Notes: a model not told the origin generated them from the sequence alone. A stretch of DNA of 64,000 nt from Candidatus Gottesmanbacteria bacterium (GCA_963714095.1 OY970230.1:831907-895906), one strand, 5' to 3'. Counted from the first letter of the stretch, positions 25,284 through 27,230 are shown. Numbers and translations: made by a program.

Positions 25284-27230
25284 ATGGCTGCCACATACAC
25301 CGTAAAACAGGTCGCAGAAATACTTGGATATAGCACCAACAGTATTTATTCTTTCCTCAAAGAAAAACGCATTAAAGGAATACGGGTCGGCACTGGTCGT
25401 TTCCGTATTCCGCAGAGTGAATTGAACCGGTTACTCCTGATTTCTAAGGCTCAGCCCAGCGGCAAACAACCGGGGACGCTTGTTCCCATGACCGGCACTC
25501 TTATTGCATCGGATTCGGGAGTTATTGCGCCTCACGAGTCGGCTCCGCCGTTTTCCCTTTCACTTTTTGGCGGGATTCATACTATGACGGCAAATATCTT
25601 TGACTGGTTTATCGGCATTGCTGCAGTCGTAGTCGGTATTGCCATGTTTCTTTTCGATCAGTCATTTGACATTGTGCATATGCAATCGTTTATGCCGGTT
25701 ATTCCCGCAACACGGATTCTCCTCATCGGCGGGGGGTTGGGAATACTTCTCACGAATTTTACCTATGATACCCATAAGAACTGGCATAGGGTATTTCACG
25801 GCGTCCTTGTGGTGGCCGGTATCGTGATGACGATATTTCTGGTTATGTCGCGGGATTTTGACGCCGTCGGCGTGTACGGGGCCCTGACGCTTGTTATCGG
25901 TCTTACCATGTTTGTACGTCTGGGGAAAATTATCCCGTTTGTCCTGTATCTGACGATTTTGGCGGCTTGCGCACCTATTGTGGACTTTATCGCACCTCAG
26001 GATTTTCATGTCATGGCAATTTCCAGTGTGTTGGGTGTGACGCCGCAGGTTTTAGGTATTGGACTGTTATTTCTCAGTTTTGGATTTATCCTCCTCCTGT
26101 GGTGGGGATTATACCGGAACAAAGTTCTTTTTTGGCTGTGTTCGTATGCGGCAACCGTCGTGTATTTTGTCCTGGCATATTGGTTTGCGACCGCCCAATT
26201 TTGGTCCCGTGCGTTCTTTTTCATGATTATTGCTCTCACGTGTATGTACCTGCCGTCGTGGGGGGATCTCACGTTGTCCCGTAACCGGAAAGCACACGCG
26301 ATGGCTGTCGGCGTCTTTCTGTCGATCATGGCGGTACTCCTCATCGGCGTTACGGTGGTGTATGTGACCCAGCTGAACGTCATCGCGACAGTCAAGCAGG
26401 AAAATGTCCAGAAAGTGGATTATGCACGCACAACAATTGAAAGCGATCTGCAGAGCGTCAAATCTACGGTGACAACTGCATCCATCAATCCCGATTTGGT
26501 CACAGCGGTCGGAGCGAAGGATATATCATCCCTGACTGACTTAAGCCGCATTATATTCGACAGCAGTGACAGTATCCGGCGGATTGTCATACTGGATAAG
26601 AGCGGTACGGTGTTTTTTCTTTATCCCCTCGGGGTATTTAATCAGATAGATTTGTCATCTCAGGATTACTTTGCGAAAGCGAGGGATACCGGAGCAGTCT
26701 ATATTTCGGATCTATTTGAAACACTTGCCGATAATACCCATCGGAAAGTTGTGACAGTGTCCGCGCCGCTCTATACCCCGGAGAAGCAATTTGTTGGAGT
26801 TTTAGCAGCTTCACTCGATTTGGATGCCATCAGCGCCCGCCTGCAGAAGATCGCGGTTTTTGAACGGGGGGAATATATCGTGGTTATCGACAGCCATGGG
26901 AAACGGATCATGCATCCGGTAGCCTCCCTTATCGGTACGGATACGGAAGCCACGGACCCGACACGTCTGGGTCTTACCGGGCATACGGGAGTTGCATCAG
27001 GAGATACCTATGACGGCGTCCATTCTTTAATTGCCTATACGCCCATAGACAACTCGCTTCATTGGGCGATTGCCCTCAAAGCTCCGTTTACGGATATTTA
27101 TGCGCTCTCCAATACGGCAAACGTCTTTGTTGCAGGTTTGGTCATAGGCTTTATCGTCATTGCCGCACTTATATTTCAGTTGAACTACATATTTAAATAT
27201 AAGGCGGATACCGACGGAGGGGACCCGTGA
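25284..27230 (+). CDS. Membrane-embedded one-component regulator. It has an N-terminal excisionase/MerR-type HTH, a polytopic membrane domain of about 10-12 TM segments, an extracytoplasmic Cache-like sensor domain and a C-terminal TM.
   Basis: [46 protein letters not shown] is a Xis-type HTH. Many hydrophobic helices follow. The segment between residues 370 and 610 ([11 protein letters not shown]...[25 protein letters not shown]...) is double-Cache-like. The C-terminal hydrophobic helix is [19 protein letters not shown]. The stop TGA lies 27 nt before the fibre gene ATG. Confidence 0.6.

Follow-up and report, generated by a model that had tools for sequence, protein, structure and literature searches.

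A predicted membrane-embedded regulator with a BldC/Xis-type winged helix and a dCache sensor is paired with a giant collagen-like fibre gene in Candidatus Gottesmanbacteria

This study concerns a gene pair in a stretch of 64,000 nucleotides (nt) from a Candidatus Gottesmanbacteria bacterium (GCA_963714095.1 OY970230.1:831907-895906), the whole of which is referred to as the window. The first gene (25284..27230, plus strand) begins with ATG, ends with TGA at 27228-27230 and encodes a putative regulator of 648 residues; this open reading frame (ORF) is present exactly as given by an earlier reading made from the DNA alone (the sequence-only reading). The second (27227..38453, plus strand, end approximate) is a giant gene for a collagen-like fibre, broken into several reading frames in the window. 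The pairing was counted over 40 loci with enough sequence. In 39 of them a large same-strand ORF with an N-terminal transmembrane (TM) anchor begins at most 320 nt past the regulator stop, and in 37 this ORF has collagen-like G-X-X runs of at least ten triplets, up to 524. The sequence-only reading had proposed that the two genes are functionally coupled, and their conservation side by side agrees with this.

The regulator starts with a helix-turn-helix (HTH) domain. Pfam HTH_17 matches residues 5-51 with 36.1 bits (cut-off 27), and the NCBIfam 'excise' model TIGR01764 matches residues 4-50 with 33.3 bits (cut-off 28.8). Pfam MerR_1 stays below its cut-off (12.4 bits vs. 21.6, E 0.17), and in an AlphaFold2 model of the regulator no coiled-coil of the kind that defines the MerR family stands behind the HTH. 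Of the excisionase/MerR-type label given by the sequence-only reading, the excisionase half stands and the MerR half does not. The model, built from an alignment of 117 sequences, is confident (mean predicted local distance difference test score, pLDDT, 87.3; predicted template modelling score, pTM, 0.77). It confirms a winged-helix fold of the BldC/Xis type for the N-terminus (HTH_17/BldC-like, residues 1-52, 25284-25439), with BldC as the top solved match. A disordered linker follows at residues 53-103 (pLDDT <50), and then a nine-helix membrane module at residues 105-360 (25596-26363), for which no solved structural relative was found. Its TM helices are at residues 105-123, 139-159, 165-188, 192-210, 217-236, 254-277, 280-303, 307-331, and 335 to about 360.

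The next domain, at residues 361-609 (26364-27110), is a dCache sensor. Pfam dCache_1 matches residues 367-597 with 94.6 bits (gathering cut-off 45), and the model has the double-PDC fold (residues 431-511 and 531-601) with a long N-terminal stalk helix that is continuous with TM9. TM10 (residues 610-643, 27111-27212) lies on the other side of the domain and is followed by a short tail. The extracytoplasmic part is about 250 residues long. Both the Cache-like domain of about 240 residues and the HTH_17 domain expected earlier were thus recovered above their cut-offs. The earlier count of 10-12 TM helices plus a final one was right about a multi-helix module and a final helix; the total falls toward the low end, with nine plus one making ten. 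In the Cache domain, residue 460 (26661-26663) aligns to the ligand-binding Arg131 of KinD. It is Gln here and Arg in 94 of 117 family members, and it may reflect a change of ligand.

Because an odd number (nine) of TM helices separates the HTH from the Cache domain, and because lysine and arginine are biased among the loops, the HTH and the C-terminal tail are predicted to be cytoplasmic and the Cache domain to be outside. On the HTH side the N-terminal part has 11 such residues and the inner loops have 2, 1, and 1, while the outer loops have 0, 1, 0, and 0. This topology is a prediction from helix count and charge bias, and it places the HTH where the sequence-only reading had put it. With a recognised DNA-binding domain, at least one TM region, and an HTH predicted to be cytoplasmic, the protein has these structural features of a membrane one-component regulator as defined in PMC10269533. 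It is not of the ToxR/CadC type, as no match to Pfam Trans_reg_C was found in it and it has ten TM helices.

A search of 5.8 billion proteins with the regulator returned 141 matches. Among the 120 matches listed, all but four are full-length (604-705 residues) with both HTH_17 and dCache_1, and identity goes down to about 29%. The few homologues with organism names among the matches listed are from Candidatus Gottesmanbacteria, and the names given in databases do not go beyond 'excisionase family DNA binding protein' or 'helix-turn-helix domain-containing protein'. The membrane module alone, searched against 1.84 billion representatives, gave 153 matches, nearly all 600-690 residues long with the module in the same position. 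Among the most distant 59 of these, dCache_1 is present in 57 and HTH_17 in 52; the missing HTHs are probably due mostly to N-terminal truncation, since several sequences in this set look N-terminally short by their length and match position. Because the module-only search returns nearly only proteins of the same layout, the nine-helix module is, as far as sequence searches go, private to one architecture, and the regulators with it form a closed family of about 150 clusters, confined to Patescibacteria of the Gottesman- and Roizmanbacteria type. One locus (L042; loci are cited by such numbers where needed) was considered as another architecture with the same HTH and was rejected, as it is merely a homologue cut at a contig end.

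We recovered 42 genomic loci, which belong to Gottesmanbacteria, Roizmanbacteria, or unclassified Patescibacteria. Many third-party records with the locus (L005, L009, L010, L013, L015, L017, L019, and others) bear the title 'uncultured Gammaproteobacteria', probably through mislabelling. No paralogue was found in the window or in the flanks. The isolate nzgw408 has two diverged regulators (L006 and L026, with 43% and 32% identity to the window protein), and each copy has its own giant collagen-like gene behind it.

Conservation differs by region. The commonest residue has a frequency of 0.89 in the HTH; for the Cache domain the value is 0.49, for the membrane module 0.44, and for the linker 0.25, so that the HTH is the best-conserved region and the linker the least. 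A poorly conserved linker with pLDDT below 50 is what would be expected if a signal at the Cache domain led to cleavage within residues 53-103, and the freed winged helix, about the size of BldC (68 residues), then acted on the direct-repeat arrays described below. Such a release is unlikely, however, since no protease gene is conserved in the neighbourhood of the regulator and since many membrane-tethered regulators act without release, according to a census of such proteins (PMC10269533).

The start of the fibre gene is closely joined to the end of the regulator gene. In the window a GTG (27227..27229, plus strand) overlaps the regulator stop as GTGA and is in frame with the fibre ORF. A start codon overlaps the regulator stop in 34 of 41 loci (ATGA in 23, TGATG or TAATG in 7, and GTGA in 4, the window included). 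The ORF that begins at the overlap shares the frame of the fibre in 24 loci. In ten others (L014, L015, L017, L020-L022, L025, L027, L028, and L041) it is a separate leader ORF of 29-53 residues, and in eight of these ten the leader stop overlaps the fibre ATG, which gives ATGA coupling at both ends. The sequence-only reading had placed the fibre start at an ATG 27 nt past the stop, with a good Shine-Dalgarno sequence. An in-frame ATG at 27257 and a good Shine-Dalgarno sequence upstream of it (AGGAGA, 27247-27252) do exist, and 26 nt separate the stop from the ATG. As a conserved start this codon fails, because it is ACG in the closest relatives, and it is an alternative start in this genome only. 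A GTG at about 27383 was also considered as the true fibre start, which would have left the downstream array in a non-coding spacer; it was dropped because stop and start codons overlap, the frame is open in 24 loci, and leaders are coupled at both ends in eight of the ten others.

No sigma-70-like promoter was found at the junction on either strand (2 of 20 junctions each, against a shuffle expectation of 19%). A minus-strand match at 27381..27354, tried as an antisense promoter, is unconserved, being found in 2 of 20 junctions, below the shuffle expectation. Regulator and fibre therefore most likely form a single operon that is read from the regulator's promoter and is translationally coupled, and the co-transcription proposed by the sequence-only reading is supported to this extent.

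The overlapping codons, and the fact that each regulator is strictly paired with one TM-anchored fibre, could also be explained if the regulator protein were a membrane scaffold or assembly partner of the fibre. The coupling would then fix the stoichiometry of the two, and the HTH would serve as a DNA-membrane tether or interaction module; a membrane module that is private to the family and has no solved relative would be consistent with this. This explanation is very improbable, as the HTH is the most conserved region of the protein and is matched by a conserved DNA motif at the regulator's own promoter, and as dCache domains are modules for signal input.

Beyond the stop codon there is a GC-rich hairpin, CCGCC-cccg-GGCGG, with a T-rich tail, TCTTGTCATTTTATT (27263..27290, plus strand), which looks like an intrinsic terminator or attenuator. 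A perfect GC-rich stem beginning 26-39 nt past the stop is found in 33 of 41 loci, where shuffles lead one to expect 3.2. Among these hairpins 12 inner stems and 29 loops can be told apart, several pair positions vary on both arms, and a T-rich tail usually follows; covariation was assessed by loop-anchored pair counts and shuffles. RNAalifold gave no structure on the MAFFT-aligned hairpins, in which unequal loop lengths shift the arms out of register, and Rfam has no known RNA family in 24900-27700. The hairpin probably attenuates transcription that runs on into the fibre gene, which is very long.

After the hairpin comes an array of six units in reverse-complement orientation (27321..27382, minus strand), with two copies of TTTTACAAGT followed by GTAC/TTAC units. 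The TAC of each unit is at 27326, 27336, 27346, 27358, 27368, and 27378, with spacings of 10, 10, 12, 10, and 10. The array abuts the first codons of the fibre membrane anchor (about 27383), and together with the hairpin it falls inside the translated leader stretch.

A second array lies upstream of the regulator gene. A promoter-like element of the regulator operon (25176..25205, plus strand) has TTGACA, 18 nt, and CATAGT, with 10 of 12 matches. A sigma-70-like element is found 5' of the regulator in 36 of 43 loci, and the block TTGACA...CATAGTAGATATAG is kept across loci. A divergent promoter-like element, that of the DeoR-HTH gene described below (25182..25155, minus strand; TTGTCA-16-TATCAT, also 10 of 12 matches) overlaps it at the -35. 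TGTCAA in the overlapping -35s is present in all 43 loci. Five direct-repeat units (25215..25266, plus strand) follow the promoter and precede the ATG, where the DNA encodes the 5' untranslated region (UTR): cTTGTG, cTTGTAA, tTAGTAA, cTTGTAA, and tTTGTAA. Their central G is at 25218, 25228, 25240, 25250, and 25260, with spacings of 10, 12, 10, and 10.

Both arrays are built from a 10-bp direct repeat in helical phase, AAAACTTGTA, with the consensus AAAACT(T/G)GTA. Repeat spacings peak at 10, 22, and 32-33 bp, while none of 134 background pairs is at 9-12 bp. Phased arrays are found in 29 of 43 upstream regions and in 20 of 41 junctions, compared with 0.4% of random windows, and in the window these two are the sole clusters of T[TG]GTA[AC]. 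A lone match to ACTTGTAA at 13798-13805 (minus strand) is outside the locus and belongs to no array. In some genomes additional phased TTGTAA-type arrays, in either orientation, exist 5' of a starch-synthase-like gene or between it and a 317-residue gene (L013:4290-4330, L019:4300-4340, L014:5687-5724, L005:5813-5842, and L009:5677-5720); the corresponding places in the window have none. Because a period of 10 nt is not divisible by 3, because A-tracts are phased with it, and because the arrays are in different frames across lineages, their pattern indicates a role at the level of nucleic acid and not that of a peptide repeat.

That nucleic acid could be RNA. The 5' UTR array, (ACUUGUAA)n, might pair with the leader array, (UUACAAGU)n, in one transcript and so create a processing site or mask the fibre start. 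Wherever a locus has both arrays they are oppositely oriented, both would be on the same transcript, and the hairpin indicates that RNA or DNA structure is under selection at the junction. Cognate array pairs are, however, no more complementary than non-cognate ones (-44.8 vs. -45.0 kcal/mol, p 0.67). Phased units at 10-12 bp with A-tracts are typical of double-stranded DNA, arrays in either orientation exist at other intergenic sites, the junction array is missing from half of the loci, and no Rfam family was found in the region. Pairing of this kind is accordingly given only a slim chance.

The protein that binds the arrays might also be another one. Divergent from the regulator is a gene for a 316-residue protein with a C-terminal DeoR-type HTH (24108..25058, minus strand), a possible second regulator of the locus. 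Its position is kept in most loci, where it adjoins the regulator and shares the intergenic region holding the upstream array. If this protein, for example, bound the arrays, the HTH-TM-Cache protein would have another target or role. This is rather improbable. TTGTAA arrays remain in L029-L031 and L033, where the DeoR-HTH gene is not adjacent, and the gene's own 5' region (about 25140-25170) has a distinct direct repeat, TGATAAG...ATGATAAGATTA, with GATAAGA in 29 of 43 loci; because of these two points the DeoR-HTH protein does not appear to be the array binder. Phased direct repeats are moreover known as targets of BldC-type winged helices.

On balance, we lean towards the reading that the HTH-TM-Cache protein is a membrane-integrated one-component regulator dedicated to one operon, which consists of its own gene and that of the giant surface fibre, and that it probably switches the fibre on or off. 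Xis-type excisionases assemble cooperatively on direct repeats. Since BldC and Xis-type proteins bind such repeats, and since the BldC-like HTH and the repeat are both near-invariant, the two would be obvious partners. By analogy with BldC and Xis, HTH domains of clustered membrane proteins could polymerise head-to-tail on the arrays. At the upstream array this would block promoter escape and repress the whole operon, the regulator included; the position of this array, close behind the promoter and within the transcribed leader, suggests autorepression. At the junction, array and hairpin would set how much transcription enters the 7-11 kb fibre gene, with the array as a possible roadblock. A ligand on the Cache domain would affect how TM9 and TM10 pack against the helix bundle and thereby alter HTH assembly on DNA. 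As the regulator would be inserted in the membrane during its synthesis, its own locus would be held near, which would make binding in cis feasible.

Several points weigh against this reading. All loci belong to one clade, and part of the conservation is common descent. The junction array is not essential to the system, being absent from about half of the loci (the group of L007-L013, L016, L019, and L037, and others). Hairpin and junction array are in a translated region, an unusual place for an operator and one that would permit roles at the RNA level, and the upstream and junction arrays are oppositely oriented. The neighbouring DeoR-HTH protein could be the array binder, and the predicted topology depends on helix count and charge bias.

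A bolder form of the proposal, which we regard as tentative and somewhat less probable than an even chance, takes the BldC/Xis-type winged helix to be the filament-forming output of a polytopic receptor. The Cache ligand would control a membrane-anchored filament on the phased arrays on either side of the receptor's gene, the filament and the translated terminator hairpin would together gate the lectin-tipped fibre, and the nine-helix module would be a new signal-transmitting domain. The fibre could then be a host-attachment organelle of an episymbiotic candidate-phyla bacterium.

The fibre itself has a short cytoplasmic N-extension, a TM anchor, and thousands of residues of collagen-like G-X-T triplets, followed in the C-terminal part by a Gly/Thr/Asn-rich region and an H-type lectin domain (PF09458, E 1.2e-9, in the last piece at 37758-38453). 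It resembles a collagen-like stalk that is anchored in the membrane and binds carbohydrate at its tip. In the window at least four or five frames can be distinguished (27227-31210, about 31214-32347, 32131-36756, 36497-37954, and 37758-38453). The breaks fall within near-identical GPTGATG repeats, and homologues are single ORFs of more than 2000 residues; the breaks could be assembly or sequencing frameshifts in the repeats, or real decay. Directly 3' of the fibre gene are genes for PMT_2-like and YfhO-like polytopic glycosyltransferases (39967-43488), which are candidates for O-glycosylating the Thr-rich fibre. Upstream of the regulator, the starch-synthase-like gene is also conserved in position. 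The gene order around the regulator is chromosomal and conserved over the 40 loci. With glycosyltransferase, starch-synthase-like, DeoR-HTH, and fibre genes as neighbours in these loci, there is no mobile element or adjacent integrase of the kind that goes with an excisionase.

Patescibacteria have tiny genomes and few regulators, and little is known of how they sense hosts or surroundings. The locus joins a dedicated membrane sensor-regulator to what is apparently the largest Patescibacterial surface structure, a collagen-like stalk with an H-type lectin tip, by a compact and conserved set of cis elements: a promoter, two operator-like arrays, an attenuator hairpin, and coupled start codons. 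The signal behind fibre display can be tested directly and without culture, the material needed being a domain of 55 residues, two DNA fragments of 60 bp, and a soluble sensor domain of 250 residues. If the proposal is true, head-to-tail DNA binding of the BldC type is extended from small soluble proteins to membrane receptors, and the nine-helix membrane module joins the list of signalling domains.

Among known systems, the protein can be set first against other membrane regulators. In a census of 50,302 transmembrane transcription regulators, 33% have HTH_18, 6.9% Trans_reg_C, and 0.3% HTH_17; 27% have three or more TM helices; and dCache_1 is found in 936 members, together with HTH_18 in the rows covered here (PMC10269533). 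The statement of the sequence-only reading that membrane-tethered regulators normally use OmpR-type domains is wrong by these figures, as Trans_reg_C is far less frequent than HTH_18. Its other statement, that a Xis-type HTH with a polytopic membrane domain and a Cache domain is unusual, holds for the combination, which is new; the membrane one-component kind of regulator was already known. The regulators with dCache_1 and HTH_18 (e.g., BH0483 of Bacillus halodurans, listed in PMC10269533) have the same one-component design of an extracytoplasmic dCache and a DNA-binding domain. While they have an AraC-type HTH_18 after dCache_1, the window regulator has an N-terminal HTH_17/BldC domain, nine family-specific TM helices between HTH and sensor, an occurrence in Microgenomates only, and one target operon. 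ToxR, CadC, and TcpP share with it a cytoplasmic N-terminal DNA-binding domain held at the membrane, an extracytoplasmic sensor, and a nearby or dedicated target locus, but they have an OmpR-type Trans_reg_C, a single TM helix, and other sensor folds.

BldC of Streptomyces (PDB 6amk) assembles head-to-tail on 9-bp direct repeats into multimers of varying size (PMC5859096). It is a soluble protein of 68 residues without a sensor, and its repeat is AATTxxxx(C) (PMC5859096). In the window regulator, by contrast, such an HTH is the output of a 648-residue polytopic membrane receptor and the repeat is the 10-bp AAAACT(T/G)GTA; with its membrane module and Cache domain, the protein is not the small stand-alone protein without an effector or dimerisation domain that defines the BldC family. 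Excisionases, such as lambda Xis and gp37 of Pukovnik (PDB 4j2n, which we take to be the Xis of this mycobacteriophage), belong to the same HTH_17/TIGR01764 sequence family. The window regulator differs from them in that no integrase or mobile element is present, the locus is chromosomal and syntenic across the phylum, and the HTH is fused to a membrane sensor. The dCache sensors of Mlp24, PctA, Tlp3, and KinD, the last of which is the closest by sequence (E 7e-4), have the same double-PDC fold, long stalk helix, and flanking TM helices. Their output is a methyl-accepting chemotaxis protein or kinase module, while here it is a DNA-binding domain.

A literature search found no paper that mentions HTH_17 together with dCache_1 and nothing on Gottesmanbacteria and collagen; among the matches listed for the Candidate Phyla Radiation, collagen-like proteins, and Microgenomates, none is on this regulator family. 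The novelty lies in how the parts are combined: an output of the BldC/Xis type, a nine-helix membrane block that is private and had not been described before, a dCache sensor, an occurrence limited to Microgenomates, and a strict pairing with the fibre through conserved cis elements.
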